Source: Thermoplasmatota archaeon (GTDB lineage Archaea; Thermoplasmatota; Penumbrarchaeia; Penumbrarchaeales; Penumbrarchaeaceae). Taken from it: a stretch of DNA of 64,000 nucleotides. The notes beneath the pieces were generated by a model. That model had not been told where the DNA came from and did not search any database. It worked only from the letters and a program-made list of their open reading frames with translations. Position numbers and translations under genes: made by a program. The stretch is from assembly GCA_029762535.1 (NCBI GenBank), contig JARVGK010000003.1:73216-137215 (forward strand), read 5' to 3'. Of this stretch, positions 6,101-52,700 are shown piece after piece (the first letter of the stretch is position 1; each line of letters begins with the position of its first letter).

Positions 6101-7520
6101 TAAGGACGTTGTCCGTTCCCGAGAGGATCGATCCGCTCGAAGCTTCGCCCCAGACTATGAAGGTCGAATCTCGGATCTCCGTCTGGTCCGCTCCAACCCG
6201 GACCCCGAAGGAGTTGTCCGCCCTTATGGAATAGCTGTTCGAAGAAAGGAGCGCCCCCCTGCCCGGACCGAGAACGATGCCGTTGGTCATCATACCGCTG
6301 GTCATGATGATGTCATTGATCAGGGTGAGGTTCCTGTGGTCGGAGAAGGCCGCTATGATCGATCCATTCCCCCCTTGGTAGAAGTTCGATCCCGATATGG
6401 ACATATCAACGCATCCCAGTAGGAACGACCCGTTCACAAGGCCCCCGGAGAGGGATATGCCCGTTTGATTATCCCCCTTCGAGGAATAGGACAGGTCCAT
6501 GATCGAGCATCCTATGAGATGGGTGCCATTGAGGAAGGACGAACCGTTCCCGAGCATGTTCACAGATGTATTGCTCAGCATGACATCCCTCACGTTGAAC
6601 ACCTCGATACCTCTGGCTCCCGAGTCCAGGAAAAGGGCCGTCCCGTTCATTGTGACGTTATCACACGATGAAAGTTCGATGCCGTGTGTGTTCTTACCGG
6701 TCATGGTGAGGAAGCAGCCCTCTATCTCTATCCCGGAACCGGAGAGGTGCATCGCCGTTCCGACCATCTCGATGATCATGGCATTGAGCTCGAGGTCTGT
6801 ACCCTGGAAGTGGATCCCAGATGCTCTCCCGGTCGATGTGATGCTGGAGTTATGGAAGTGGATGGAATCTCCCGAGATGATGAACCCCTTTGAACCGGAC
6901 CCGAGTCCTATGTCCATGTCCCTGAAGGTGATGTTCGAGACATTGATGGCATGGCATATCGTGGATCCCGATCCGTCACTTGCCATTTTCCCCAATATGA
7001 TGTTCGATGAATTGGCTATGTTCACGCAGATGTCCGGCGATCCCGAGAAGGATGCTCCGTCGATCTCGATGGACTTCGACGACTCTATGTTCAGAGCGAT
7101 GCCGGTCGTTGACCTGAAGCCGATCCCCGTCAGATCGATGTCGTTCGAGGAGATGTTGAGAGACCGACCGACGAAGGTCATGCCGGCCAATGTTACGAAG
7201 GGAGCGGTCACACTGCTGTTCTTGCCATACGGGCCTGAGATAAGTACCGATGCCGTATCATTACCCCTGAGCGTTACGGAACGGGTCCCGACACTGATCG
7301 ATTCGTTGTAATTGCCGGATGCGATGACTATTACATCGCCCTCGACGGCATCGCCCAGGGCTGCCCCTATGGTGGAATAGGTGGATCCCGTCCCGACGTA
7401 AAGTACGAGTCCGGATGCCCCGCGTGGGGTTATCAGCAGGATCCCCGATGTGAATAACAATAATACCATGGCCGTTGCGATGAGCTTACCTTTGCGTTCC
7501 CCGGCGTGTACTTCGATCAT
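3189..7520 (-). CDS. large cell-surface protein: parallel beta-helix, FN3 repeats, Ig-like domain, TM anchor, acidic tail
   Basis: Signal peptide; YSTIGAALGDAVEGDVIVIASGNY beta-helix cap; FN3-like segments (LTISWDP...YTLGGLVPGTLYGFRM); IRIMFNQPMD Big_5-like motif; TM then D/E-rich tail. Confidence 0.85.
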   Translation of the reverse strand: MIEVHAGERKGKLIATAMVLLLFTSGILLITPRGASGLVLYVGTGSTYSTIGAALGDAVEGDVIVIASGNYNESISVGTRSVTLRGNDTASVLISGPYGKNSSVTAPFVTLAGMTFVGRSLNISSNDIDLTGIGFRSTTGIALNIESSKSIEIDGASFSGSPDICVNIANSSNIILGKMASDGSGSTICHAINVSNITFRDMDIGLGSGSKGFIISGDSIHFHNSSITSTGRASGIHFQGTDLELNAMIIEMVGTAMHLSGSGIEIEGCFLTMTGKNTHGIELSSCDNVTMNGTALFLDSGARGIEVFNVRDVMLSNTSVNMLGNGSSFLNGTHLIGCSIMDLSYSSKGDNQTGISLSGGLVNGSFLLGCVDMSISGSNFYQGGNGSIIAAFSDHRNLTLINDIIMTSGMMTNGIVLGPGRGALLSSNSYSIRADNSFGVRVGADQTEIRDSTFIVWGEASSGSILSGTDNVLIDSTLTSFNDGWLLHLGGSNNEVVYSQIYLNGPGTGIDVLGDVRRGVIDGCSIDLIGEGSTGIRAGPVPPHTTNLRILTTMIHSDPGTGHSIVTGHDTTSMMMKDVIIWSNTTMAALDLSGNDIVLDHVIVKSAGIGLESNSARLLMNNSKVDAQRSVIFREGDHAVVGSDIVASGTALSAYEGAEVEVLDTTVSSFDVDPMSNVMISNTIGVRVLYKDVQPMEGVELHVVNERTGGLHSTPYFGGSDPVTGPDGGIAPFVALKMIYPGSNAPMNVRTNATVHVPGTAMIWDHVYDIDTSAPMSVELVVPDIDLPQSVLNLTADSLDTLESIKLKWDPNDDDTIAYRIYSFSSGEWILSGEVDHPSTSWISPEIGPSTRGIFRVSAFDGVWEGAPSQPATNITSDLTPPATPTSAIISDKGVDHLTISWDPGSETDLEGFIIEMNSTPSMTQFETLVTLGPGETSYTLGGLVPGTLYGFRMLAFDTSYNYSPYTPVFQGTTERMLYSLEVTVLYEGGPLSGQGAQGSIVRLLSFNGTLIESAQAQEDGVVGFSSLEMGGEYRLEGAPEAALRGEIGVRSGYLSNTSTFISASGPNPDLFTELFLTYYLRPETGSIDVFVAFGEGPRSGAVFNALIELLSMDDVVLENRTTNNLGEATFSIRTLPFIGRFKVTPPESVSAIPGKRAGYLQKMTNTFEVSSQEPYWGRFEIRLDYLDFTPPPRELLVLWRTPVGTVRDLDTSIRIMFNQPMDTLTIESYTTIDPPLKGARYVWTNNNQSLEILHDGLGNRVSYTVRIGTEARSIEGAGFPQGYTNNTWTFRTERTIVGSDGIPREVMYAALAIFAIIIIAIGVYIYIKQPRDDDLGTDEEEFDPYSYDYLDEEAYGDADEEADEDLEDEEYLEDEGEPEDEEEGAEEEGYEDEEDLEDEVLEDDEVGPEVETSEEDMSAETPPDDDGSERATVRTRKRVKRK

Positions 7521-7628
7521 ATCCTTCGCCCTCCCCGGCGCTATCGCCTATCCATATGCAACAACGCCATCAATTAATTTTCCTGACATATGTAAAAGAT
7601 TTAAAAGGGGGACGCTTTCATCCTGCTC

Positions 7629-8861
7629 ATGCATCCGACGGATGAGTTGAGGGGCGCAGCATCGACCCTCCTCGAAGGTAGAACGATCGTCCTTGGCGTA
7701 ACTGGGTCCATCGCTGCGGTCGAGTGCGTCAAACTCGCCAGGATGCTAATCCGTCACGGCGCTGCAGTTCATGCTGTCATGACGGCGGAGGCCAGGAAGA
7801 TAGTGGGGGAGTACGCCCTCGGCTTCGCAACGGCGAACCAAGTCATCACCGAGCTGACCGGAGACCTCGAGCATGTGGCTATGTGCGGGGACGTTGAAGG
7901 GCGGGCGGACCTTCTCCTGATCGCCCCCTGCACCGCCAACACCCTCGGGAAGATCGTCAACGCTATCGACGATACCCCCGTCACGACGTTCGCCACCACG
8001 GCGATAGGGACAGGGATCCCGTTGATCGTCGTTCCCGCCATGCACAATACCATGTACGCCCACGAGGGTGTGGCCTCCAACATCAAGAAGGCCAGGTCCA
8101 TGGGCATAGAGGTTGTGGACCCGGTGCTCTCCGAGAAGAAGGCCAAAATGGCCCCGGTGGACACCATAGTCGAGATCGCGATAAGAAAGCTCTCCGGAGG
8201 GGGCCTTCAAGGTCGAAAGGTTTTGATCGTCGCCGGGGCCAACCGGGAGGAGGTGGACGATATGAGGCTCCTTACCAACAGGGCGACTGGAAGGACCGGG
8301 ATCCATCTGGCCATGGAGGCTTTCAGAAGAGGGGCGGACGTGACCCTCCTTGCCGGAGTATCGGTCCACGGGATCCCGCCTCACTTCAGGACGGTTCGCT
8401 TCGGAGGGGTCATGGACCTCTGGGAGAAAGTGGAGGAGGAATTGTCTTCCTGCGACCAGTTCGATATCGCCCTCTTCCCGGCGGGGATCTCAGACTACAT
8501 ACCTTCCAGGTTAGATGGGAAGGTCCCCTCGGGACGGGAGGAGATGACTCTCGAGCTCAAACCCGCCATAAGGATCATGGATCGCTTCGTGAAGAGGGGC
8601 GGTAGCCGCCTTATCGTGGGTTTCAAGGCCGAGAGCGTATCGGGTGAGGAGCTCCTGAGAAGGGCCTACAGGAGGCTTAAGGAGGTCGGGATGGACCTGA
8701 TCGTGGCGAACGACCTTTCTCAGGTGAAGGAGGATTCCAATCACGTTATGATAATATCGAACGACAGGGAGGTCCTCGACATCGAGGGATCGAAGGCTGA
8801 CATCGCTTCCGTGCTCATGGCGAGATGCCAGGAGATGCTCGTCGGGATAAAGGAGAGTTGA
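7629..8861 (+). CDS. coaBC: phosphopantothenoylcysteine decarboxylase/ligase
   Basis: LGVTGSIAAV, IAPCTANTLGK, PAMHNTMY, VGFKAE, IVAND motifs. Confidence 0.95.
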   Translation: MHPTDELRGAASTLLEGRTIVLGVTGSIAAVECVKLARMLIRHGAAVHAVMTAEARKIVGEYALGFATANQVITELTGDLEHVAMCGDVEGRADLLLIAPCTANTLGKIVNAIDDTPVTTFATTAIGTGIPLIVVPAMHNTMYAHEGVASNIKKARSMGIEVVDPVLSEKKAKMAPVDTIVEIAIRKLSGGGLQGRKVLIVAGANREEVDDMRLLTNRATGRTGIHLAMEAFRRGADVTLLAGVSVHGIPPHFRTVRFGGVMDLWEKVEEELSSCDQFDIALFPAGISDYIPSRLDGKVPSGREEMTLELKPAIRIMDRFVKRGGSRLIVGFKAESVSGEELLRRAYRRLKEVGMDLIVANDLSQVKEDSNHVMIISNDREVLDIEGSKADIASVLMARCQEMLVGIKES

Positions 8862-14964: not shown

Positions 14965-15867
14965 CTACCCCCTGCGCAGGGCTTTCCCCACCTCTTTCAG
15001 GATGCGGTCCCTGGCATCCTCTATGACATAATGTCCAGCATCCTGATATGTCACGAATCGGGCCTTCGGGAATCGAGCCCTCCAGACGTCTAATATATCC
15101 ATATCGAATATGAAATCCTTTTCACCCCAAATAACGAGCATCGGCTTCCCCTTTAGCTTTGACAGGTTCTCGTCGATCCACTTGAGCGTGCCGTAGCTTG
15201 GGTCCTTTGGTACGAGGGGTATGTCCTGAACGAACCTGAGCGTGGATAGGCGGTTCCTCCACGAGTTGTACGGGGCGACGTAACCCTTCCTTACATGGGG
15301 GTCCATCCTCTTTTCAACGCCGATATGGGACGCTATTCTGGAAAAAGCGTTGAGACCCCTGATGAGAAGGGTCGGTGAGATCAGGCCGTACTTCACGTAA
15401 TAGAGAGACAGGGGCAATCTCTTGCCCTCCGGCATCCTGAAGGCCGCGGTGTTCATGAACACGAACCTCGAGAACCGCTCCGGATGTCCGACCGCGACCC
15501 CTGCTCCGATCACACCCCCCCAATCATGGGCTATCAGAGTGATATCCTCATCGATGCCCAGGTGATCGAGGAGCGCTTCCACATCCTGGATCCTGGATGC
15601 GATCCTGTATTGGTATTTGTCCTCTCCTGGTCGGTCCGACAGCCCCATTCCCATATGATCGGGCACGATGCATCGGTGGTCCGCCCTGAGGTCCTTGACC
15701 AGCTCCCGGAAATAAAAAGACCAGGTCGGGTTGCCGTGAAGAAAAAGAACGGGAGGTCCCCTGCCCTCGTCGAGATAATGATGCCTCAGACCGTTCCTCT
15801 CGAACCAGTGATGTTCGAACGGGTAAATGTCCCTGAAAGGGGTAATATCGAAAGGTGTTCCATGCAT
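14965..15867 (-). CDS. oleB: OleB-like alpha/beta hydrolase (haloalkane dehalogenase fold; beta-lactone decarboxylase)
   Basis: LHGNPTWSFYFR, AHDWGG nucleophile, DAGHY catalytic His; directly upstream of oleC. Confidence 0.85.
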   Translation of the reverse strand: MHGTPFDITPFRDIYPFEHHWFERNGLRHHYLDEGRGPPVLFLHGNPTWSFYFRELVKDLRADHRCIVPDHMGMGLSDRPGEDKYQYRIASRIQDVEALLDHLGIDEDITLIAHDWGGVIGAGVAVGHPERFSRFVFMNTAAFRMPEGKRLPLSLYYVKYGLISPTLLIRGLNAFSRIASHIGVEKRMDPHVRKGYVAPYNSWRNRLSTLRFVQDIPLVPKDPSYGTLKWIDENLSKLKGKPMLVIWGEKDFIFDMDILDVWRARFPKARFVTYQDAGHYVIEDARDRILKEVGKALRRG

Positions 15868-16033
15868 TGTATCCGGGGACCAAGGTCCATATCCTAAATT
15901 AAGATTGCTTCGGGGATGATCCGCTTAGATCGATCTATTATCATCCATCATCATTCATGAACCCCGGGATGTTTAATTATGGTCGAGTGGGGTTCGAATC
16001 CCGTGCGTCGCTAGAGCTACAACAAATTAGATA

Positions 16034-16120
16034 TGGTGCAGGGGAAGGGATTCGAACCCTCGAACCACTAAGGACCAGACCCTGAATCTGGCGCCGTTGG
16101 CCAGGCTTGGCTACCCCTGC
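16034..16120 (-). tRNA. tRNA-Leu (anticodon CAG), CCA encoded
   Basis: GCAGGGG/CCCCTGC acceptor stem, CCAGA-TTCAGGG-TCTGG anticodon arm, long variable arm, GGTTCGAATCC T-arm, ACCA end. Confidence 0.96.
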
Positions 16121-16442
16121 ATGTTTTTGCGTTTGTGCCTGGGTAGCGTATGGCCAACGGCGCCCCGAGACGCAGTCTCGGTGATGGCGCCTCGGATGGG
16201 TGGCATGTGCCACCCGTCCCCTTCCGCGAACGCTTTGGTGGTGAGACCAAAGGGTTCTTGGGCAGGCTTGGCTACCCCTGCATGTTTTTGCGTTTGTGCC
16301 TGGGTAGCGTATGGCCAACGGCGCCCCGAGACGCAGTCTCGGTGATGGCGCCTCGGATGGGTGGCATGTGCCACCCGTCCCCTTCCGCGAACGCTTTGGT
16401 GGTGAGACCAAAGGGTTCTTGGCCAGGCTTGGCTACCCCTGC
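16097..16442. repeat. tandem 161-bp repeat: three copies of the 24-bp tRNA-Leu 5' end separated by two identical 137-bp structured units
   Basis: TTGGCCAGGCTTGGCTACCCCTGC at 16097, 16258 (1 mismatch) and 16419; 16121-16257 is identical to 16282-16418. Confidence 0.95.
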
Positions 16443-16517
16443 GATATCTGGGCATCGTTGATACGATGTCGCCTTTAACGACCGTTCGATAATAAAGATA
16501 TCGATGAGAAGGTCTCA

Positions 16518-18782
16518 TCAGGTGATGACGAGATCCTGGGACGATGAAACGAACAGTGTATCTCGAACTTTGTCGAACCTCGTGAAAATCTCAGGACCCA
16601 TGTTCTCGATCTGCTCCTGAGTGAATCCAACTATGGTGAGATCCGCTTTTTTCGAGATCCTGTTGATCTTATCCCTCATCTCCTCATCGCTCTCATATAC
16701 CTTGGACTTTACCGATCTCATCGAGATCGGCAGCCTCCCCTCGGATACCAAAGCCTTCACCCTCTTGGCAAGGGCTGCGCGATCCCCTTTGGGAAATAGA
16801 GTGAATATCGAGATCTTCGTCCCTTTCCATTCATCATGCTCCATAATAATATAGGACAGAAGTATCATGAGATTGACGTTCCTGAAATCCTCCTTGGTTA
16901 TCCATAGATGTATATTCTGTCTATGTCCGAAGTTATGCTCCGTGGATCTCAACACGAGCTTGTTGTAGTTCACTATGGATGCCATCCTCAATCCCGTTAT
17001 GATGTCGGTGAGGTCATCTTGTCTATTCTTGTGGAACTCGAACATTATGGTGTTATTGTCCATCCCTGAGATACCGGAGATCTGCACGGTCTGGGCAACT
17101 GCCGTAAGCGTAGAAGGAGAAACCAAGGTGGTTACCGAATAGTTCGCCTTTGAGCTTCTCATCTCCTCTATTAGTATTCTCTCGTCCTTTTTCGAGGATT
17201 TGACGGTCTCCGGGTCCAATTTTCCCCTCGTCATATGTACCAGGGTCCCGAAACCGTAATGATGCGAGATCCACCTAAGCATGTCCTTGGGTCCCTTCCG
17301 CTCGATGGCATTGGTGGAAATGGCGATTATCGAGGGCCTCCAGTTGAACTTGTCGGGTTTTGACATGGTCCTCTGGAGGGTGATCTTCATCAACCTGCTG
17401 AGCTGGAACATCACACCCTGGAATATTATGGCGAACGACCGCGACCTTTTATGCCTCATACCTAATAGATAATAGATCCCTCCCATTATCAGAAGGGTAA
17501 GGAACGCGTAACCCGCGCTCAACTGGAACATGATACCGAATGAGAATACGGCTCCAACAAGGGAGATATACCACTTGGTCTTGAATGTTGGACGATAGGA
17601 GGGATTACCCGCAAAATGTTCGAGGAATGAAATGAGACAGACCGAGCCGTATGCGATCAGGAAGAACATGGTGATGATCTGGGCCACCATGTTGAGGTTG
17701 CCCATGAAGATGAACACGATCGCGATGATCGCAGATAAAAGTGTTCCGTTGATAGGTTCGTTCTCCTTTCCCTTGCCATATCTTATGAAATCCCCTATTC
17801 TCTTGGAGTAGAACACCTTGTCCTTGCCCAGGGCCTGGAGCGTCCTTGGTCCGATCAGAGCGAACCCAACTGCTGATGATATCGTGGCACCGAAAAGGCC
17901 TGCGAGTATAACGTATCCCAGATGCAGGTTCCCGATCCCGTTGGCCATATCGAACATTATCAATGTGTTCGATGCGAGGACATCAACCGGGGCGCTCAGA
18001 TAGAGCTTGACCATCATTGCCAGATAGACGAAGAACCCGATCACTATGGCGAAAATGATACCCTTTGGGATCGATTTCCCCGGGTCCTTGAGGTCTCCCG
18101 AAAGACCTACTCCTGCCGTCATGCCTGTGAACGCCGGGAATGCAATTGCGAAGACGGGTAGGAACCCCAAAGAGTTCTGTGATGTAGCGGTTATCCCGGA
18201 CGGGGCGCCGGGTAGGGGTGGGCTTATCATAAAGATGATTATTGAAGCGACCATCAGTGTGAATACCACCCAAAGGAGTTTGATACCGATCTTGGCTCCC
18301 TTGGTGAGAATGATGCTGAATAGTATGAGTGCCAAGGGAATGCTGATGAGCCGGGGATCGTAAGTTATTGAGATCGGCAGAGGATCGAGCAGATATCTCT
18401 GGATCGGTTCTTTCAACGCCTCGAACCCTTCGGCAAAACCGATGATGTAGAAAGCCACGGATATGGACTGGGCCGCATACAGCATGACGCCGATCGTAGC
18501 GCCAATCCTCGGTCCAAAGGATCGGCTGATGATGTAATACTCGCCACCGCCGCCAACCCTTAGGTTCGTGGCGATCTCGGATATGGCTACCCCGGTGGGA
18601 AATGTTACCATGTGCCCTAATAGAACTATCGCGATGGCCCCTATGAATCCGACGTTGCCGACCGTGAAACCAAAACGCAGGAACATGACGGCGCCTAGTA
18701 TGGCGCAGATCGAGGTGAGGAAGACGGGGGCGGTACCGAAACCGTATCCGCCCTTGATAATGTTCCTTATCCTTCTGACCAT
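16518..18782 (-). CDS. cation-chloride cotransporter-like (SLC12/APC) permease
   Basis: ILGAVMFLRFG, GGGEYYIISRSFG, FPAFTGMTAG, NPSYRPTF, NWRPSI motifs; TM domain plus cytosolic C-terminal domain. Confidence 0.88.
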   Translation of the reverse strand: MVRRIRNIIKGGYGFGTAPVFLTSICAILGAVMFLRFGFTVGNVGFIGAIAIVLLGHMVTFPTGVAISEIATNLRVGGGGEYYIISRSFGPRIGATIGVMLYAAQSISVAFYIIGFAEGFEALKEPIQRYLLDPLPISITYDPRLISIPLALILFSIILTKGAKIGIKLLWVVFTLMVASIIIFMISPPLPGAPSGITATSQNSLGFLPVFAIAFPAFTGMTAGVGLSGDLKDPGKSIPKGIIFAIVIGFFVYLAMMVKLYLSAPVDVLASNTLIMFDMANGIGNLHLGYVILAGLFGATISSAVGFALIGPRTLQALGKDKVFYSKRIGDFIRYGKGKENEPINGTLLSAIIAIVFIFMGNLNMVAQIITMFFLIAYGSVCLISFLEHFAGNPSYRPTFKTKWYISLVGAVFSFGIMFQLSAGYAFLTLLIMGGIYYLLGMRHKRSRSFAIIFQGVMFQLSRLMKITLQRTMSKPDKFNWRPSIIAISTNAIERKGPKDMLRWISHHYGFGTLVHMTRGKLDPETVKSSKKDERILIEEMRSSKANYSVTTLVSPSTLTAVAQTVQISGISGMDNNTIMFEFHKNRQDDLTDIITGLRMASIVNYNKLVLRSTEHNFGHRQNIHLWITKEDFRNVNLMILLSYIIMEHDEWKGTKISIFTLFPKGDRAALAKRVKALVSEGRLPISMRSVKSKVYESDEEMRDKINRISKKADLTIVGFTQEQIENMGPEIFTRFDKVRDTLFVSSSQDLVIT

Positions 18783-18908: not shown

Positions 18909-21206
18909 TCAAGGATAGGAGCCGTAGCACTGCTGCATGATATGATACGACGCTTTGAGCCTGGGCACATATTCGGGTATGTCCCAGTTATCCCAACCAT
19001 AGAACATGAAGTCCACTCTCCTGAACACGCCTGAGAGGGGGCGGGGGATCGAATCGGATATCGGGGGGTGATTCGTCCCGTGACTAAAATTTCCGAATGC
19101 ATCAGGCTTGTAGGTGATGACGGCGAGGTGAATGCCATCTATCCTCTGGCTCGCCTTCAATCCATCCCTCCACATATCCCCCATCACCTCCTTTCTTGAA
19201 GGGTCCCTGAAGTTTAAAAGCAGCCAGGGGATCCTCATCTCTAAGGAGTCATCCCCCCATGAGATATCGGCAAGGGAGTTGTAATTGGGCATGGCCGGGT
19301 CCGCCACCCCCCATCTCAGCTTGCCGGTCTCGTGAGTGGAGAAGTTCGCGCTGATGTTGAACCTCTCGATAATATAACCGCGTTCATGCGTGAGTTCTAT
19401 GGTGTGGAATATGCCATTGTCCTTGCGGTTTGCATATTCCACGATCGGGATGACGCCTTCGTCCACCGCGTAATCGTAATGGTTGACGTCGTAGTACGAA
19501 TCGACGATGACCCTGGACTCCTCTCCGTTCAGTTGGATGAGGAAGTCTATACCCCTCTCGGATACGATCCCCGATCCGAAGGGCATGACATGTACGCCCT
19601 GGTCCTGAACCGTGTCGAGGAGGACCATCGTCCTCATCCTCGACCAATCGGGAGGGCCCTGAAGGTCCATGTATTCCAGCCTGAGGTAGAGATAAGCGGC
19701 GTCATGGTGTACTTGAACGGCCTGGAGATCCCTGCCGTCGTCGTACCCGTCATCGAATATATTGTAGCGGGATCCGGCCGTCCTTCCGAGGGGGTCCACC
19801 CTTTCCCAATCGCCGGAGGATCCGTCGATGACGATACGATGCTCGGAGACGGGATCGAAGGCGAGCATGCCGTAGCATTGTTCGCACGTCTGTACATCGT
19901 TCCAGTAAGGCCTTCTTCCCGGGTTCATGTAGTCCATGGTGTTCCATGCCCGCTTGAACCATTCGTCCTGCCACGAGAACAGAAGCCCTCCTGCGTAACC
20001 CTCATCAATAATATCGTTGAACAGTGAGGAAGTATAGGCTCCCTGTTCTTTTTCCGTTAAACCCCCATGGTGCATCCCATTGTTATTGAAGTGAGCGATC
20101 CCACGAGAGGAACTTATACCATATTCCGCGACCAGTATCGGAATGGAAAGCGTCTTTTTCAGGTCATTCAGGTATGATGCATAGGGGGAGGCCCTTCCAT
20201 ATTTTGATATGTAATTTGCATAAGAGGGATCCAGATTAAGGAAATCTGGATAGTTGGGATATACATGGTATGAGGCGAAGAAACCGGGATAGAAATGGGA
20301 CTTAACACGAAAATGCCTATCATCGATAGTCTCCCAATCATCATACAGCCTGGGTTCATATTTATGCTCCAGAGGATCGGTGGTTGGCCAGTTGATAAAG
20401 CTTTGAGCCCTCTGACAGTCGTAGTTGTCATATTCATAACCTGCGCAGAAATCCATCATCCTGGCCAGCCAGATCTCCATCGGGCTTGCCTCCACGGTTC
20501 TGAAGAACCTTCCATCGAGCTGGTGGATCCCCCGGTTGTTGGAATTGGTCCCGTTGACGATGTAGGGATCGTATTCGATCCCGAGGATGTATCCAAGGAC
20601 ATATTCTGAAACATCATGCCTGTATATGCCGTCGGCGATCCCCACGGTCGGTTCGACCTTCCTGTTGCCGTGGATTATGTCAACGGCCATGGCGATGTTG
20701 TCTATGAATACCGTGCTTACCTCATCATCGAAGGCATCGCAGCGCTCATGGATCGCGATCTCGTCCAAGGTCACGCCCTGGAAGAGGAATATCGGATCGG
20801 GGCGCACTCTGTTGTACTCGAGCAAGGCCCTGTAGAAATCCGGAGGGTGATGCGTGTATATCCTGACGGCGTTCGCGTTCATCTCCCCAATGAGTCGGAA
20901 CCAATCCCTGTATTCGGAATAGGTTATCGCGGCCTCCCCGGGGAAATATCCCGGCTTGGCGGCCCCCATGTTCACTCCTTTGATGATGATGTCCGTCCAT
21001 ATACCATCCTTCATGATCTGGAAACGCTCCTCTCCCACCCGGGACGTGATCCATGCCCCTTTTCCCCCGACATCGAAATATGCCCCCTCCATGTGATAGC
21101 GGGGGATCTCCCTGTCCCTGATCAAAAGAGGCCTCACGGCGAGGGCCGAGAGCAGCAGCATCCCGGCAATGAATACCGCATACTTTAGAGGACCTTTCCA
21201 CTCCAT
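18909..21206 (-). CDS. membrane-anchored putative TIM-barrel glycoside hydrolase (GH-A clan-like)
   Basis: N-terminal TM; IKGVNMG, NANAVRIYT, SYHVYP, LVAEYG, FSWQDEWFK motifs. Confidence 0.7.
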   Translation of the reverse strand: MEWKGPLKYAVFIAGMLLLSALAVRPLLIRDREIPRYHMEGAYFDVGGKGAWITSRVGEERFQIMKDGIWTDIIIKGVNMGAAKPGYFPGEAAITYSEYRDWFRLIGEMNANAVRIYTHHPPDFYRALLEYNRVRPDPIFLFQGVTLDEIAIHERCDAFDDEVSTVFIDNIAMAVDIIHGNRKVEPTVGIADGIYRHDVSEYVLGYILGIEYDPYIVNGTNSNNRGIHQLDGRFFRTVEASPMEIWLARMMDFCAGYEYDNYDCQRAQSFINWPTTDPLEHKYEPRLYDDWETIDDRHFRVKSHFYPGFFASYHVYPNYPDFLNLDPSYANYISKYGRASPYASYLNDLKKTLSIPILVAEYGISSSRGIAHFNNNGMHHGGLTEKEQGAYTSSLFNDIIDEGYAGGLLFSWQDEWFKRAWNTMDYMNPGRRPYWNDVQTCEQCYGMLAFDPVSEHRIVIDGSSGDWERVDPLGRTAGSRYNIFDDGYDDGRDLQAVQVHHDAAYLYLRLEYMDLQGPPDWSRMRTMVLLDTVQDQGVHVMPFGSGIVSERGIDFLIQLNGEESRVIVDSYYDVNHYDYAVDEGVIPIVEYANRKDNGIFHTIELTHERGYIIERFNISANFSTHETGKLRWGVADPAMPNYNSLADISWGDDSLEMRIPWLLLNFRDPSRKEVMGDMWRDGLKASQRIDGIHLAVITYKPDAFGNFSHGTNHPPISDSIPRPLSGVFRRVDFMFYGWDNWDIPEYVPRLKASYHIMQQCYGSYP

Positions 21207-47057: not shown

Positions 47058-48452
47058 TCATGTATCGCACACTACCTGTGCCCCTTTCTTCTTTTTCTCA
47101 AGCGCGTCCGGCCTGAAGTATGCCTTCAGCCATACGATCCCCGCCATCCCCGCCAGGATGTTCGAGAGCGCGATCCCAAGGAATATGCCCTCGAGACCCA
47201 GAAGATGACCCCCGATGAGCATGAAGGGTACCATGAAGGCTATCAGCCTGATGATGTTGAGAACGGCCGAGGGCATGGGCCTCCCCACGGCGTTGAAGGC
47301 GGATCCCGCGATGAAGCTTACGCTTATGAGGGTGTATCCCAGGCCCGAGAACACGAAGAAGCGCCAGTACGCGTCAATCACCTCGGGGTCCGACGTGAAC
47401 AGTCTGGCAGTGAGCAGAGATGTGGATGAAAGCAGCAGGTATATGAGTATGCCCCATGCCGCGCTCAGCCGGTTCGAGAACCTTATGGCCGTCCTCACCC
47501 TGTCCCACCTGGAGGCGCCGGAGTTCTGGCCTATGAACGGGATCAGAGCCACGGAGAGAGCTATCGGAGGCATCAGCAGGAGCCCCTCGAGCCTGGTCCC
47601 CGCCCCGAAGCCGGCGACCACCTCCTTTCCGTATCCCGCGAGAATGGCGGTTATGATGGCGGTGTTGACCGGGGCCAGGATATTGACGAAGGTCGCCGGG
47701 ACCCCCACCTTGAGAATGTCCTTCCAGGAACGCAGTATATTTTTGATGGGGACCATCCATTCGACGAGAAGCCCCTCCTCTTTCCTGAGGACGATCAAGG
47801 TCAACGGGAGCGTGACGAACCTCGCGATAACGGTGGCTATCGCGGCCCCTTCCATTCCCAGGGACGGGATCGGTCCGAACCCGAATATGAGAATGGGATC
47901 CAGAACCACGTTGAGGACCACTGCCGCGATGAGAATGTACATCGGCCTCTTCATGTCCCCAAGGCCTCTTAGAACGCTTCCGCCCAGTATCGGAACGGAT
48001 ATGAAGACGGCCCCTAGATACCACCAGGTCATGTAGTCCTTGAGCATCTCCAGTATGGACCCGCTCGCCCCCAGTGCGTTGAACAGGGGCCCCATGGTAG
48101 CTATGCCAGTTACCGTCACTGCGATGCCGATGAGCAGCCCCAGGAGCAGGGTGGATATGGTAAGCGCGCTCAACCTGCTCGTTTTACATGCGCCCACGGT
48201 ACGGGAAACGAGCGAGGTCACCCCTGTCCCGATACCTATCGAGATCGAGTTGAAGAAGAACACCGCCGGGAAGGAGAACGATATCGCGGCGAGTTCGTCC
48301 GTGCCCAGCATCCCGACGAATATGGTGTCCACTAAATTGAATAGCAGCATGGAGACGAAGGCGAACACGAGTGGGATCGACAGCCTGATGAGGGTCGCTC
48401 CCACCCGGCCCTCGGTCAGGGCCGCCCTCTTCGCGTTACTGCTACCGGTCAC
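47058..48452 (-). CDS. MATE-family efflux transporter
   Basis: About 12 TM; NLVDTIFVG, LNVVLDPILIFG, GAAIAT. Confidence 0.93.
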   Translation of the reverse strand: MTGSSNAKRAALTEGRVGATLIRLSIPLVFAFVSMLLFNLVDTIFVGMLGTDELAAISFSFPAVFFFNSISIGIGTGVTSLVSRTVGACKTSRLSALTISTLLLGLLIGIAVTVTGIATMGPLFNALGASGSILEMLKDYMTWWYLGAVFISVPILGGSVLRGLGDMKRPMYILIAAVVLNVVLDPILIFGFGPIPSLGMEGAAIATVIARFVTLPLTLIVLRKEEGLLVEWMVPIKNILRSWKDILKVGVPATFVNILAPVNTAIITAILAGYGKEVVAGFGAGTRLEGLLLMPPIALSVALIPFIGQNSGASRWDRVRTAIRFSNRLSAAWGILIYLLLSSTSLLTARLFTSDPEVIDAYWRFFVFSGLGYTLISVSFIAGSAFNAVGRPMPSAVLNIIRLIAFMVPFMLIGGHLLGLEGIFLGIALSNILAGMAGIVWLKAYFRPDALEKKKKGAQVVCDT

Positions 48453-49690
48453 CTCAGATTCCCTCCGTCGAAAAGGACCTCGAGCACCGAATCGATCCGG
48501 AGCAGGACATCCTTCAATTTCGAGGCTTGGCGTTTGGAGATCCCTTCTCTTTCCAGTTCCTTCAAGCCCTCTTCGAGGGCGGTCAATGCGCCTCCCACGT
48601 TCAGATCGTCGTCCATGTTCTCGGCGAAGCCTTTGGGCATGCCCTCTATGATCGATGTGTTACCGGGGAGGTCCGGACCATCTCCGGCCAGAAGGCCGCA
48701 GATGGATCCCCTGATCCCGTCGAGGCGCTCGCCGGAGCGCTCGAAGGCGTCGTACGTCATGTTCATCCTCCTACTGTAATGTCCCTCGATGAGGAAGAAT
48801 CGGATGTGCCTCCGATCGTACCCTTTTTCTATGAGGTCCTCCGGATAGATGACGTTCCCGGCGCTCTTTGACATCTTCTTGCCGTCGACAAGCAGATGGG
48901 CCCCGTGCAGCCAGAACGGAGACAGCTCCTCACCGCTGTAACCTTCGACCACGGCGATGTTGTAATCATGATGCCTGATGAGGTTGTCCTCTCCCCCGCA
49001 CCAGATGTCTATGGACGGGCCAAGTGTGTCGAGGACCATCGCCCCGTCCTGAACGTTCCATGAGGGCCTACCGGATCCCAGCTCCTCGTCCCAGCAGACC
49101 CTGTCCTCTTCGGAGCAGCCGTGCCAGAGTATGAAATCCCCCCTGTTCCACCGCATTCCCGGGTATGTGTCCTTTGAAAAGCGCATCCTTCTTTTGGGCC
49201 ATTCGTTCATGTCGAGCCCGTAGAGCCGCCCGAAGCCGGAGAACTTCAAAGGGTCGTAGAAGATGTCGTTCTTGTATCGGTAGGCCATTCCCTTTTTCAA
49301 CAGCAACTTGATGATCTCTACGGAGCGCGGGACCGATCCCGAGGCGCGGGGCAGCATGTCCGGCATCCTCATCCGGAGCAGCTCCCATTCCCGGAGCATA
49401 TCCTCCTCGTTCCTCCTGGTGAGCTCCGATACGTCCAGCTCCCTCTTCATCGACTCCAATATGGCCTTGTCCTCGACGTCCGTGATGTTCATGGCGCGCT
49501 TGACCCTCATTCCTCTGTAGATGAGGTATCTGACGAGTATGTCCTCGAACAGGAACGTCCTGTAGTTACCGATGTGCGGCCTCTGATATATCGAAGGCCC
49601 GCAGGTGAAGATCCTGACCTCGTTCCTGTGCTCGAAGGTCATCTTCTTCTTGCCCAGGCTATTGTGAAGGGTTAATCCCGTCCGCTCCAT
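48449..49690 (-). CDS. cysteinyl-tRNA synthetase-like class I ligase (atypical paralog)
   Basis: CGPS..PHIGN and KMSKS present; Zn-site motifs altered; ends after the DALR-like helix. Confidence 0.8.
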   Translation of the reverse strand: MERTGLTLHNSLGKKKMTFEHRNEVRIFTCGPSIYQRPHIGNYRTFLFEDILVRYLIYRGMRVKRAMNITDVEDKAILESMKRELDVSELTRRNEEDMLREWELLRMRMPDMLPRASGSVPRSVEIIKLLLKKGMAYRYKNDIFYDPLKFSGFGRLYGLDMNEWPKRRMRFSKDTYPGMRWNRGDFILWHGCSEEDRVCWDEELGSGRPSWNVQDGAMVLDTLGPSIDIWCGGEDNLIRHHDYNIAVVEGYSGEELSPFWLHGAHLLVDGKKMSKSAGNVIYPEDLIEKGYDRRHIRFFLIEGHYSRRMNMTYDAFERSGERLDGIRGSICGLLAGDGPDLPGNTSIIEGMPKGFAENMDDDLNVGGALTALEEGLKELEREGISKRQASKLKDVLLRIDSVLEVLFDGGNLR

Positions 49691-49742
49691 GTCCCGGCCA
49701 TATACTGTCAGCTTATATCCCATTCCCCTTGAATGATAGGGG

Positions 49743-52700
49743 TCACTCCTCCGAGTATGCGAGCCTTCTGCGAAGAAGGAGGAAAACGATGGTGAGGAGC
49801 AGCATGACGGCGATTATCAGGACCGGGACCCATATCCACATGTCGGTCCTTTCAACACCCTCCTCCTCCGGAGGGACGATCTCCCTGGCGATGCATACGA
49901 TGGGTACGGAACCTACCGTGTCGAGCCCCGTCCCGTCCATCACGATGTGTTCGAGGGTATACGTGCCCGGGGCGAAGGAGAGCTTGACCGAGGGATCCGT
50001 CGAGATGTTGACATCATCCAACCTCCACAGGTAGGTGAGCGAGGTCATGTCCGGGTCGAACGAATCCGACATGTCGAAGGTCACGTTCTCTCCCTCTTTC
50101 ACTCTGATGAGGCCGCTCTCGTGGATGGTTCCGTTGATCCGCAGCACCATGACCGGCATCATGTCTATGACTAGGACCCTTGCCGAGGCGTTGTCGTAGA
50201 GCTCTCCGTCCCAGACCATGAGCCTGATGCTGTGAAGACCCGCCGGGAGCCTCATTGAGAACGTCGGCTCGACCGAACGGTGGATCCCGTCCACGAACCA
50301 TGAGTATTGAATTTCCGCCCCTTCGGGATCGAAGCTGCCCTCCGATTCGAACGTGACATATTCCATCACGCCGTAATGTGAGCCGTCAATGGGCGACGAT
50401 ATGTTCGCGACGGGAGGGAGGTTCACGGGAGGAGGGCGCTCGATCACCGAGACGATCACCGATGAAAAGCTGAACAGCTCCCCGTCGCTCACGTTGAGGG
50501 TCACGGTATGGTCCCCGATCGAGAGGAAGGTATCGAACTCCATCTCTTCCGAAAGGAGGCCGTCGATGGAACTGCTCCATGAGAAGGTTATGGGATCTCC
50601 GTCGATGTCATAGGACCCACCCCCGGAGAAGATGATCCTGGTGTCCGAGTAGAACACGGAGCCGGACGCCGGACTTGTGATGAACGATGATGGGGGGTTG
50701 TTCCCGGGGACCACGCTGAAGGTGACAGTATCGGTCCCGTATCCACCCAGTCCGTCGGAGACGTTGAGGGAGACGTTGTGCGTGCCCGGAGCGAACCTCA
50801 TCGAGAATCCGCTGGACAGCGATATTATCTCGTTCCGGTCCATGTCGGACCAGACGTATGTCAGGGGATCGCCGTCCGGGTCGAGGGTCCCCTCCGAGTA
50901 GAAGGATATGGATGTCCCCAGGAGGAACTTTTCCCCTTCGATGGGCGACGATATGTTCGCGACGGGAGGGGCGTTGCGGCGAACCACGCTTATGTCGACC
51001 TTCGCCTTGGATGCGAATACGCCGTCATGGAACACCGTGAAGGTTATCGTGTGGTTCCTGATAGGCAGCGACATAGAGAACTCCAGCTCTTCGGAGATGG
51101 GTTCGAACAGGGCGCTGCTGGTCCAAAGGTAGGTAACGCGGTCACTTTCCCCCGGAAGGAGCCCTCCCGTGAACGTGATGGTCTCGTCCGAGTAATACGT
51201 CCCTGGAGACGGGCTCAGTATGATCGCGTCCGGGACCACGACAGCGGACTCGATGAGGACCCTCATCGATACGAAGGAGATCGTGTTCGGGGATAGGGCG
51301 CCTGCGACGATGTTGTAGCCGGGCCCGTCCAGGACCAGGGAGGCGTTCTTCCCCGGTTCCAGGAGTAGGATGTACGAGGGGATGAATCCAAGACCGGAGC
51401 GGAACAGGGTGAGGTTCTCATCGTTGAGGACCATGACCGGAAGGGTCGAGGACCCGTTCCTTTCAAGGGTATTACCTCTCAACAGATGGTCATCGAAGGA
51501 CCTCGTTCGCTGCCGGAGATCGTTCAGTAACAGGGTGTAGCGAGCGTCCTGCCCCGAAGCGTTAACAGGCTCGTTCATGAACGGGAACATGGTCGAGTTC
51601 AGGGTCACGTTGTAAAAGTGGTCCTGTCCGATCCCCGCCAGCGGATAGGCTAGCGTCAGGGTGCCGGGTGTCTCGGGGTGGTCCCCAATGTGAGAGATGA
51701 CCCTCACGTAGTAGTCGAAGTTGAAACCGACCTTGAAGGAGGCTGCCCCGGAAGCGTCAGTGGTATTGGCGATCAGCCCGATGCCGTAGGGGTTGTTGAA
51801 GGAGTCCTCCGTCCCGACGACGACAAGGGCGCCGTCAACTGGGATCCCGTGCGCGTCAAGGACGTTCACGGTCATGTTGGAGGTGAAGGTGTAAAGGGAC
51901 GTCGCGTCGAAGACGGACCCGTCGGGATCCAGTGCGGAGAAGGCGGATACGGCTCCCGGGGATCCCTCCGCGAAGGGGTCGTCCACCCTCCCGTCGTATG
52001 CGCGGATCAGGTGCCATCCGTCCTCGTAGAAATGGTTCCACGCATGCCATGTTCCGAAATCGACGACCTGCACTGCCGGGATCAGGGCGATCTTCAACGA
52101 GGCGGTCAGGAGATCCGAGTTCTCCCCGCACATCCCCCAGTGGTTCTTGTAATGGACGATCGGCTGCTTCGTCCTGTTGGCCTCCGGTGGGATCCCGAAC
52201 TGGGGCATGACCTCCCGCTGCCAGCGGGCGGCAGCGCCGAGGGCCCCGTTGTCGTCAAGGTCGTTGACGTTCCCCTTCCAGAGATATGTCTGGTTCTTCA
52301 AATAGTCCTTCAGTATGGGATATCCTGGATCGTCCGTCATGTTGAATAGATGGCTCCTCCAGAAGGAGCCGTTCGCCCTGTCGGAGTGGGAGCGGGAGTC
52401 CGGATCGATGTATGATGGTAACTCCATCGTGTTGATGGGCGGGACCAGATACTTGTAGTAGATCTCGTGGGGGAGGGTCCTGTTTCCGCTCTGCAACCTG
52501 TATTCGACCGTGGACCTCTGCCCGTCGGCGTGGTCGGAATCGACGATCCTGACGTAGTCGAGATGGGCGTCCATAGAGTACATCGCGACGACGTTGTCGA
52601 GGAAGACCATCGGATCGACGAGCGGGTGGGAGAGGACCTCCTTGGGGGCGCTCGCTATGGAGAAGGCGATCTCGTCGATGTATTGTTTAGGTATGGACCC

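Follow-up and report, generated by a model that had tools for sequence, protein, structure and literature searches.

Short repeats linked to tRNA genes, the tRNA-linked repeats (TLRs), have been known in Escherichia coli since 1978, and we know of no agreed origin or function for them. Twenty-two gene-less units have been reported at ten E. coli loci, each ending with 18 to 19 bp of the 3′ end of the preceding tRNA or rRNA, with function unknown except for three that bind Hfq and CsrA (PMC8144298). Here, we describe a tandem 161-bp repeat located directly upstream of a tRNA-Leu(CAG) gene in a 64,000-nucleotide stretch (the window, the whole stretch of DNA analyzed) from the genome of a Thermoplasmatota archaeon, hereafter G000. 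Like the units described here, the E. coli TLRs (the 178-bp repeats at tyrT/tyrV, RtT, and rrA/rrB/rrF) are short and gene-less, occur singly or in tandem beside tRNA or rRNA genes, each carry an exact copy of the end of the neighboring stable RNA gene, and have no known mobilizing enzyme. Their layout, with the 3′-end copy downstream, was matched by 3′-side arrays found elsewhere in G000. TLRs copy the last 18 to 19 bp and lie downstream; the tRNA-Leu(CAG) array is found upstream, repeats the first 24 nt, and consequently has to carry or bypass a promoter as well. The array further differs in its archaeal host and in holding an inverted copy of the tRNA end together with inserted hairpin modules, and an Rfam cmscan search (E value, up to 1) across positions 15000 to 17500 of the window identified tRNA only, with no match to RtT (RF00391) or any other family. 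Judged from its sequence, the array could represent a 5′-side archaeal form of TLR, a mirror of the E. coli layout. The archaeal lineage would supply a second example, here with repeats on both sides of most tRNA genes, a clear anatomy, and turnover between close relatives, making both origin and mechanism testable by comparison.

A related arrangement has been described for tRNA-Thr of Caldiarchaeum subterraneum, in which a 5′ fragment (nt 1 to 27) precedes an insertion of 1,868 bp that encodes a putative recombinase and, behind it, an intact tRNA (Sugahara et al. 2012, PMC3293823); the 5′ part of this intact tRNA, with an intron at position 24/25, came with the insertion (PMC3293823). Both loci have an upstream fragment, an insertion, and then an intact tRNA, a boundary at 24/25 to 27, a polymorphic population, and a link with non-canonical introns. 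However, the Caldiarchaeum insertion bears a gene, is found at six places, and is single copy at the tRNA, while the insert described here is 137 bp, gene-less, tandem, and palindromic and belongs to a system present at most tRNAs. Integrative elements that use tRNA genes as att sites are also comparable, as their inserts lie between direct repeats that run from a tRNA loop to the tRNA end, the tRNA survives intact, and tandem arrays and remnants are common. Such elements would explain the polarity of the copies, since only events that preserve the tRNA survive, and why a 5′-side element needs a promoter, but they fail to explain the size of the unit, the inverted copy, and the missing integrase. 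Known satellites are about ten times the size of the unit, which has no integrase in or near it and belongs to a system affecting 30 of 47 tRNAs in a genome with only two tyrosine recombinase genes. The attP(+) site of the CTX phage and the attC sites of integrons are likewise imperfect palindromes that can fold into a mimic of the target and are found in arrays of short units, although this likeness goes no further than resemblance. To our knowledge, tRNA gene 5′ ends have no counterpart of XerCD/dif or IntI/attI.

Anatomy of the tRNA-Leu(CAG) array

Coordinates are given as window positions; the locus is on the minus strand, and unit anatomy is read in the tRNA sense. Tandem Repeats Finder (TRF) identified a repeat with a period of 161 bp, 2.1 copies, and 98% matches at 16097 to 16442. 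The original prediction, made from the sequence alone, had read this region as a 24-mer identical to tRNA nt 1 to 24, 137 bp, a second 24-mer, an identical 137 bp, and the complete tRNA-Leu(CAG), and this order was confirmed by TRF, ARAGORN, Rfam, and the sequence itself. The intact tRNA (16034 to 16120; ARAGORN; Rfam RF00005, 47.7 bits) is 87 nt long with an encoded CCA and is the sole gene for anticodon CAG found in the assembly by ARAGORN. It abuts unit 2, the tRNA-proximal unit (16121 to 16281; TRF, 100% self-match), which in turn adjoins the distal unit 1 (16282 to 16442). A self-search showed that the two units differ at 1 of 161 bases, and the difference lies inside the 24-mer: using blastn-short and the sequence, the copy of tRNA nt 1 to 24 was found to be exact in unit 1 (16419 to 16442) and to carry a G20-to-C substitution in unit 2 (16258 to 16281). 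Open reading frames (ORFs) across the array gave no Pfam match, in agreement with the predicted lack of any credible ORF, and the unit is thus gene-less.

Each unit opens with tRNA nt 1 to 24 and a single G, followed by a 35-nt hairpin module, hp1, identified by pattern match at 16222 to 16256 (unit 1 copy, 16383 to 16417). The hp1 module has the form AACCC-[CTTT..AAAG]-CGTTCGCGGAA, with the hairpin arms reading CTTTGGT..ACCAAAG. A second hairpin of 28 nt, hp2, was recognized by folding at 16194 to 16221 (unit 1 copy, 16355 to 16382). After the dinucleotide GA comes hp3 (16159 to 16191; unit 1 copy, 16320 to 16352), identified from sequence and fold, in which GGCGCC (tRNA nt 25 to 30), a 21-nt center hairpin, and a second GGCGCC form the center of a palindrome. 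The second GGCGCC continues as GTTGGCC to give the reverse complement of tRNA nt 30 to 18, followed by ATAC and GCTACCCAGGC, the latter being the reverse complement of tRNA nt 11 to 1 with two mismatches; this inverted tRNA 5′ part occupies 16137 to 16164 (unit 1 copy, 16298 to 16325), and blastn-short identified an inverted match to tRNA nt 18 to 31 at 14 of 14 positions. An A-rich 16-nt leader, ACAAACGCAAAAACAT, closes the unit at 16121 to 16136 (unit 1 copy, 16282 to 16297) and abuts the tRNA or the next 24-mer. The 65-nt double hairpin made up of hp1 and hp2 sits at tRNA position 24/25 of the fragment. Each unit is therefore a palindrome of tRNA nt 1 to 30 with a 65-nt double hairpin inserted at 24/25. 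The earlier reading that the unit lacks inverted repeats does not hold, as imperfect reverse complements of nt 1 to 11 and nt 18 to 30 are present, while its placement of the boundary in the D-loop (24/25), with the tRNA 5′ end repeated so that the gene stays intact, is supported by the sequence.

To determine whether the tandem is real, evidence was taken from Logan contigs (k = 31) of four runs from three studies, with contig depth serving as a rough guide; one run (X1) is possibly the source sample of the assembly and hence not independent. Flanking contigs ended at the edges of the array, at 15985 and at 16393 or 16413, and the unit formed a contig of its own, of 160 bp in X1, 185 bp (24 + 137 + 24) in X6, and 191 bp (161 + 30) in X2 and X4, with a word depth of 1.4 to 2.2 times that of the flanks. 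With words of 31 letters, a repeat of only 24 bp would leave the graph unbroken around a single unit, and the unit must therefore have at least two contexts; the joint expected from a single-copy unit was not seen in the Logan contigs of the four runs. Zero cover at 16315 to 16355 reflects a collapsed repeat placed once and has no biological meaning. In X6, the flanks were ∼10% diverged from the window, and the collapsed unit differed at 8 of 185 letters. Copies in X6 are therefore more alike within the strain than the unit is between strains, which points to concerted evolution. One real unit doubled by the assembler would be compatible with the inability of short-read assemblies to bridge the array and with the absence of any contig spanning it. 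Nevertheless, a separate unit contig at 1.4 to 2.2 times flank depth in three studies would not be expected for a single unit with k = 31, the middle 24-mer has a private substitution, and tandem layouts were also found at eight other tRNAs of the same genome and in the genomes of relatives. An assembly artefact is thus extremely unlikely, and the tandem is probably genuine.

A TATA-like hexamer, TTAAAG, is located at 16473 to 16478 on the minus strand, separated from the outermost 24-mer by a 30-nt spacer. It was correctly predicted to precede the outermost 24-mer only, as its counterpart in the inner units reads CATACG; in relatives, TTATAT, AAATA, or GATATAG is found at this inner position. 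The inner TATA of relatives lies ∼34 nt before the tRNA and is housed in the inverted arm, and as the TATA falls within the inverted copy, the inverted arm would house an inner promoter. The tRNA-Leu(CAG) units of G000 have ATAC in place of TATA, leaving the inner TATA degenerate. The spacing of TTAAAG agrees with the ∼34-nt distance between TATA and the +1 position in relatives, so that this hexamer is likely the outer promoter (P0), and only this promoter looks usable at the locus. Given the degenerate inner TATA, a leader of ∼330 nt transcribed from the outer promoter is plausible. At position 16151, C replaces T on the plus strand of the unit in three runs from two further studies; in the tRNA sense, the degenerate TATA position then reads GTAC instead of ATAC, and the inner TATA is thus also unrestored in related strains. 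RNA runs contained 4% of the words sampled from the locus, probably those of the conserved tRNA part. An inverted tRNA 5′ copy was considered as a general promoter feature of the lineage and rejected (4 of 46, versus 5% in the control). The 5′-side form of the repeats raises the question of how tRNA transcription and processing proceed through or past the units.

Arrays at other tRNA genes and in related genomes

The original prediction treated the repeat as a tiny lone element. While the gene-less 161-bp unit stands, it is not alone: a system of such repeats flanks most tRNAs on either side throughout the family. In the 2.96-Mb G000 genome (102 contigs, 93% complete), 47 tRNAs were scanned. 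Nine of these had one to three upstream units of 161 to 256 bp, each unit opening with the 5′ end of its own tRNA, and these answer the earlier suggestion to look for copies at other tRNAs. The 5′ arrays were found at the genes for tRNA-Arg (GCG, CCG, and TCG), tRNA-Pro (GGG), tRNA-Thr (TGT and GGT), tRNA-Leu (CAG and GAG), and tRNA-Ser (TGA), and a tenth is probably truncated by a contig end. Most tRNAs were followed downstream by arrays of 95 to 190 bp whose units end with the tRNA 3′ end from the T-loop. Using blastn-short (E value, up to 0.01) and, as a control, comparison of a tRNA with the flanks of another tRNA, self-copies were identified within 650 bp of 30 of the 47 tRNAs, compared with 4 of 47 in the control. 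The copies are polar: 5′ copies were found upstream only, 3′ copies (from the T-loop) downstream only, and inverted copies lie adjacent. CCA was present in 3′ copies only where the gene encodes CCA, and the copies thus derive from the gene and not from the mature tRNA.

Unit types differ between tRNAs of G000. The hp1 module was confined to the tRNA-Leu(CAG) and tRNA-Ser(TGA) units, Arg/Pro-type units contain runs of five or six T residues, and tRNA-Arg(TCG) has three different units, one of which shares its promoter part with the tRNA-Arg(CCG) locus. A further arrangement was seen at tRNA-Thr(GGT) (contig C36, 49390 to 49464, minus strand; region 48990 to 49860), where a complete second tRNA copy with two clean inserts lies directly upstream. 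The first insert (51 nt, ∼29/30) and the second (77 nt, ∼58/59) each consist of back-to-back hairpins, no obvious bulge-helix-bulge motif was identified in them by eye, and more 3′-end copies with the same T-loop insert occur on both sides of the gene.

Three tRNA-linked arrays of G000 are interrupted by runs of N (C47, ∼82200 to 82290; C5, ∼47340 to 47430; C21, ∼19550 to 19650), and five contigs (C44, C71, C82, C100, and C33) start or end 50 to 700 bp from a tRNA. As arrays break or gap the assembly, copy numbers in this metagenome-assembled genome (MAG) are lower bounds. By breaking assemblies at tRNA genes, such arrays can also hide or mimic tRNA fragments in MAGs.

The closest relatives of the permease gene adjacent to the array were from Thermoplasmatota MAGs. 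Synteny followed through this gene led, in the three closest cases, to loci without a neighboring tRNA-Leu (L018, L019, and L030), and the tRNA itself was used for comparison. The hp1 pattern was identified in 14 of 24 genomes of the family, representing five of seven genera, and a reversed control pattern in none. All 23 distinct units recovered with it lay directly upstream of class II tRNAs, namely tRNA-Leu (CAG, TAA, and GAG) and tRNA-Ser (TGA and GCT). The double hairpin followed nt 15 or nt 23/24 of the fragment, and its removal restored a continuous tRNA (15/16 or 24/25). As the tRNA sequence resumes behind it, the double hairpin behaves as a cleanly inserted submodule, and particular variants of hp2 or of the whole double hairpin were common to different tRNAs and genera.

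The tRNA-Leu(CAG) site varied between relatives, which were found empty, single, or double, as the earlier suggestion to look for empty alleles and other copy numbers had anticipated. Two units were found in G000 (type A), in G014 of genus g4 (type B, resembling the tRNA-Leu(GAG) units of G000), and in G003 of the same genus, where one A-like and one type B unit stand in tandem. Single units were identified in G004 and G010 (g5), in G019, G022, and G023 (g6), and in G006 (g7; type C). No unit was present in G005 (g6), G009 (g4), or G013 (g3), and G001, G008, and G020 had only the inverted copy plus leader. With zero, one, or two units of three types across relatives, the site is dynamic.

In G005 and G009, the tRNA was immediately preceded by the outer promoter of filled congeners. 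Genera g4 and g7 resemble each other in the outer promoter, as do g7 and g5 (G006 and G010) in the leader, and an inner promoter accompanied by leader and inverted copy was recognizable in six genera. This conservation of promoters across genera indicates that the layout of outer promoter, fragment, unit, inner promoter, and tRNA probably predates the genera. Together, the sequences suggest that deletion between the 24-bp repeats, and not a site left vacant from the start, accounts for the empty alleles. The mixed tandem of G003 and the tRNA-Arg(TCG) array of G000 show that units acquired separately, or exchanged from one tRNA locus to another, add to array growth as well. The tRNA-Ser(TGA) unit was recognizably orthologous in three genera. 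At position 1, G010 and G006 showed a paired change, with A1 in the fragment and T in the inverted copy, and A1 of G023 was uncompensated.

Self-copies in tRNA flanks were counted in further genomes at increasing distance from G000. They were found at 11 of 20 tRNAs (control, 0) in G005, from another genus of the same family; at 8 of 24 (control, 3), a weak signal, in G024, from a sister family of the same order; at 1 of 21 (control, 0) in G032, from the same class; and at 2 of 22 (control, 2) in G038, from the same phylum. The trait was thus seen in its own family and, more weakly, in the sister family, and not in the two more distant relatives sampled. The 5′ arrays were especially plentiful in G000.

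The hp1 module beyond the arrays and the search for an enzyme

The hp1 module, defined as AACCC, a perfect hairpin CTTT..AAAG, and CGTTSACGGAA, was found in, at a minimum, more than 120 metagenome stretches; at least 85 instances came from metagenome stretches and at least 107 distinct instances were obtained when the units of the family itself were included. Rfam tRNA matches of 100 to 161 nt spanned hp1 in at least eight contigs, and deletion of hp1 in silico gave a tRNA with a junction at position 33 to 39 in at least 12 cases. This deletion and rescanning with ARAGORN is crude, with guessed boundaries and unreliable anticodon calls, and only the junction positions, checked against Rfam, were used. 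Among the matches listed, hp1 was also located within two 16S rRNA genes with large insertions, in or beside rRNA spacers in two contigs, and 10 nt or less from tRNA ends in four. The 16S rRNA genes, on L206 (module at 2921 to 2952) and L213 (352 to 402), are archaeal and much exceed the Rfam model in length (2410 nt for 1478 model positions), which puts hp1 within insertions or introns of the rRNA. In intron contexts, AACCC was matched by a downstream GGGTT, and almost every tRNA or rRNA host carried hp1 in the sense direction.

In a parallel to archaeal bulge-helix-bulge introns, hp1 is found as the core of intervening sequences in tRNA genes, mostly at the anticodon loop, and in 16S rRNA genes of metagenomic archaea. 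In contrast to such introns, hp1 here lies in a nonfunctional tRNA fragment, and the working tRNA is uninterrupted. The core of the unit is therefore a small, widespread module that constitutes or lies within putatively spliced intervening sequences elsewhere. This may tie the repeats to the question of how archaeal introns arrive, and the arrival route of non-canonical archaeal introns has been described as open (bioRxiv 10.64898/2026.10.13.758758; PMC3293823).

Many hp1 copies were located away from RNA genes, often just before a ribosome-binding site and ATG (L202, L210, L217, L238, L268, and others), with that of L268 forming a 153-bp tandem. Searches of viral contigs gave 29 matches to the hp1 pattern, mostly due to chance; six had a short hairpin, and none had the unit layout or a nearby tRNA, so that no free form of the unit was found among them. 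A nearly identical short form, AACCCTTT(A/T)AAAAAGCGTTCACGGAAAA, was present in three unrelated IMG/VR contigs (L183, L184, and L189), again with no tRNA nearby and no unit layout. Resemblance of hp1 to a K-turn, a C/D box, a small ribozyme, or an origin box was considered, with no convincing match.

An absence of any integrase or casposase going with the array had been noted for the window, and a search of the whole of G000 also identified none linked to it; as this genome is 93% complete, absence of such enzymes is not proven. Although hairpins and the clean insertion of the double hairpin might call to mind IS200/IS605 elements, no match to Y1 TnpA (PF01797) or TnpB (PF07282) was identified in G000, nor was any match to a reverse transcriptase. 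Two matches to the tyrosine recombinase family PF00589 were obtained in G000, neither linked to the arrays; one, a 271-amino-acid reading frame on another contig, was not looked into further. The other, a partial tyrosine integrase cut by a contig end (C53, 7817 to 8068, minus strand), adjoins tRNA-Trp (7507 to 7705) and tRNA-Arg(TCT), and a conventional integrated element probably starts at this tRNA-Trp. The single serine recombinase (C58, 77885 to 78322, minus strand) lies ∼340 bp from tRNA-Cys (C58, 78659 to 78732, minus strand), a tRNA without flanking self-copies, and the recombinase locus may be an integrated element of another kind. The single IS110-family gene (C22, 32710 to 33153) does not adjoin an array; the one tRNA detected on C22 is ∼26 kb away. 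The sole Cas1 (C5, 61684 to 62529, plus strand) is encoded in a 555-amino-acid ORF (L091, 2991 to 3843) that precedes a CRISPR array with 12 or more repeats, each 36 to 37 nt long, at a period of 73 to 75 bp. Since this Cas1 adjoins a CRISPR array, it is not a casposase; a casposon does not fit this linkage, the gene-less units, or their location at the tRNA 5′ end.

Origin and possible function of the arrays

Folding and base pairing were used to distinguish DNA palindromes from structured RNA. The tRNA-Leu(CAG) unit (computed for unit 2) folds strongly in both orientations, with −79.4 kcal/mol (z score, −6.7) for the sense and −86.9 kcal/mol (z score, −5.6) for the antisense strand. Across units, z scores from dinucleotide shuffling favored the sense strand in 16 of 35 cases, with means of −5.02 (sense) and −4.90 (antisense). 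An antisense bias in raw fold energy (15 of 15 and 16 of 23) was withdrawn, as the z scores trace it to G/U richness. By comparison, the sense strand of control tRNAs from G000 folded better in 34 of 40 cases (raw energy), and 11% of their pairs were G-U. In 21 distinct versions of hp1, 155 pairs were Watson-Crick, 2 were G-T, none were A-C, and 6 were other combinations, while 1×1 mismatches in the hairpins of tRNA flanks were G-T in 25 and A-C in 25 cases upstream and in 15 and 28 cases, respectively, downstream. Strong folding without strand bias and with few wobble pairs argues for DNA palindromes rather than a classical structured RNA. These features fit palindromes made or corrected by copying from arm to arm, and a DNA-level origin would be the better fit, with transcription still compatible.

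We consider the array to be a DNA-level, 5′-side tRNA-linked repeat that carries a mobile hairpin module and persists and multiplies as copies of the tRNA 5′ end recombine with one another, a reading to which we give a probability of about 50%. Recombination at the D-loop would have joined a segment consisting of a spare promoter, a leader, and a tRNA 5′ part to the rest of the gene, leaving the displaced original 5′ part and its promoter upstream, in keeping with the tRNA-Thr locus of Caldiarchaeum and with elements that integrate at tRNA genes. The resulting 24-bp direct repeats flanking the unit would allow unequal crossing-over or replication slippage to change the copy number, giving the zero, one, two, or three units seen in relatives, and gene conversion could prevent the fragment, the inverted copy, and the tRNA from diverging. 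A recent duplication or homogenization of one unit would account for the present pair. The original prediction of two separate insertions finds less support, as a difference of one base in 161 and the collapse of the copies in diverged strains point to tandem duplication or homogenization instead. The tRNA would probably be transcribed from the outer promoter through the self-pairing leader and freed by RNase P, and pairing of each 24-mer with its inverted partner could keep the orphan fragments from disturbing tRNA folding. Several points weigh against this explanation. Homology of only 24 bp makes for inefficient recombination, no recombinase was tied to the units in G000, no unit was found on a viral contig, and a 161-bp double-stranded circle is unlikely as an integration substrate. 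In addition, the conservation across genera of the tRNA-Ser(TGA) unit and the inner promoter, with a layout older than the genera, could speak for a function rather than for neutral or selfish DNA, and the two changes at position 1 that are matched in both arms (G010 and G006) could stem from selection for pairing or from gene conversion.

Whichever genome or tRNA is considered, the direct and inverted copies follow the local tRNA, a single tRNA can have a tandem of different unit types (G003 and the tRNA-Arg(TCG) locus of G000), the same double-hairpin variants recur at different tRNAs and in different genera, and the palindromes of these small, gene-less units are nearly all Watson-Crick and without strand bias. 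Such features would also be expected of a sharpened form of the original prediction, an active, non-autonomous mini-element that folds as single-stranded DNA into a mimic of the target site, is integrated in trans by a recombinase with regeneration of the tRNA, and builds arrays by repeated integration. This is rather unlikely given that no candidate enzyme was linked to the units in G000 and no free or virus-borne copy was found among the viral contigs, that the near-identical units at tRNA-Leu(CAG) are more simply explained by tandem duplication and the empty alleles look like deletions, and that the tRNA-Ser(TGA) unit appears to have been inherited vertically across three genera. Alternatively, the units could be cotranscribed with the tRNA as a closed multihairpin RNA with a tRNA-like 5′ stem that would help to process or regulate the tRNA or be set free as a small RNA. 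The strength of the fold (z score, −6.7 here and about −5 on average), the retention of stems while the sequence varies between species, the paired A1:T changes in G010 and G006, the conservation of the outer promoter between g4 and g7, and the sense orientation of hp1 in nearly all tRNA and rRNA hosts would all suit such a role, and a precedent exists in the E. coli RrA, RrB, and RrF repeats of rRNA operons and in TLRs that are small RNAs binding Hfq and CsrA (PMC8144298). It is nonetheless also rather unlikely, since only 2 of 163 hp1 pairs are G-U, compared with 11% in the tRNAs of G000, and the units lack the advantage of the sense strand, raw or composition-corrected, that 34 of 40 tRNAs display in raw energy. 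The inverted copy of relatives also lies between the TATA and the expected start and would be absent from a transcript of the inner promoter, copy number and presence vary within genera, the T runs of Arg/Pro-type units could stop transcription, and no Rfam family was matched.

A relationship with introns was suggested by two observations: hp1 forms the core of intervening sequences in metagenomic archaeal tRNA genes (at least eight Rfam matches and at least 12 junctions at 33 to 39) and in the two listed 16S rRNA genes, and 24/25 is both a published site of non-canonical introns and the recombination boundary in Caldiarchaeum (PMC3293823). The stretch from the first to the last 24/25 position might accordingly be removed by the splicing endonuclease as a giant intron, or the array might be an intermediate on the way to a non-canonical intron. 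Either would be very improbable, as the intact, intron-free tRNA that follows the array makes splicing unneeded, no bulge-helix-bulge motif was identified at either boundary by eye (without a formal motif search), the inverted copy would pair across the 3′ boundary, and in G000 the module was found only in tRNA fragments and not in working tRNAs. In a broader form of this idea, which we regard as quite unlikely, the units would be small mobile DNA modules that fold into mimics of tRNA gene ends and insert there, and whose core persists as a spliceable intervening sequence when it lands in a working tRNA or rRNA gene; the arrays would capture intermediate stages in the emergence of non-canonical archaeal introns, those at 24/25 among them.

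Two further features were identified near the array. An ORF of 765 amino acids (18909 to 21206, minus strand), located two genes upstream, had no Pfam match at an E value of up to 0.001. On the other side, 32 nt downstream of the tRNA, an inverted copy of tRNA nt 62 to 74 (T-arm; 13 of 13 positions by blastn-short) was located at 15990 to 16002 on the minus strand, and it belongs to the 3′-side module layout found at most tRNAs.

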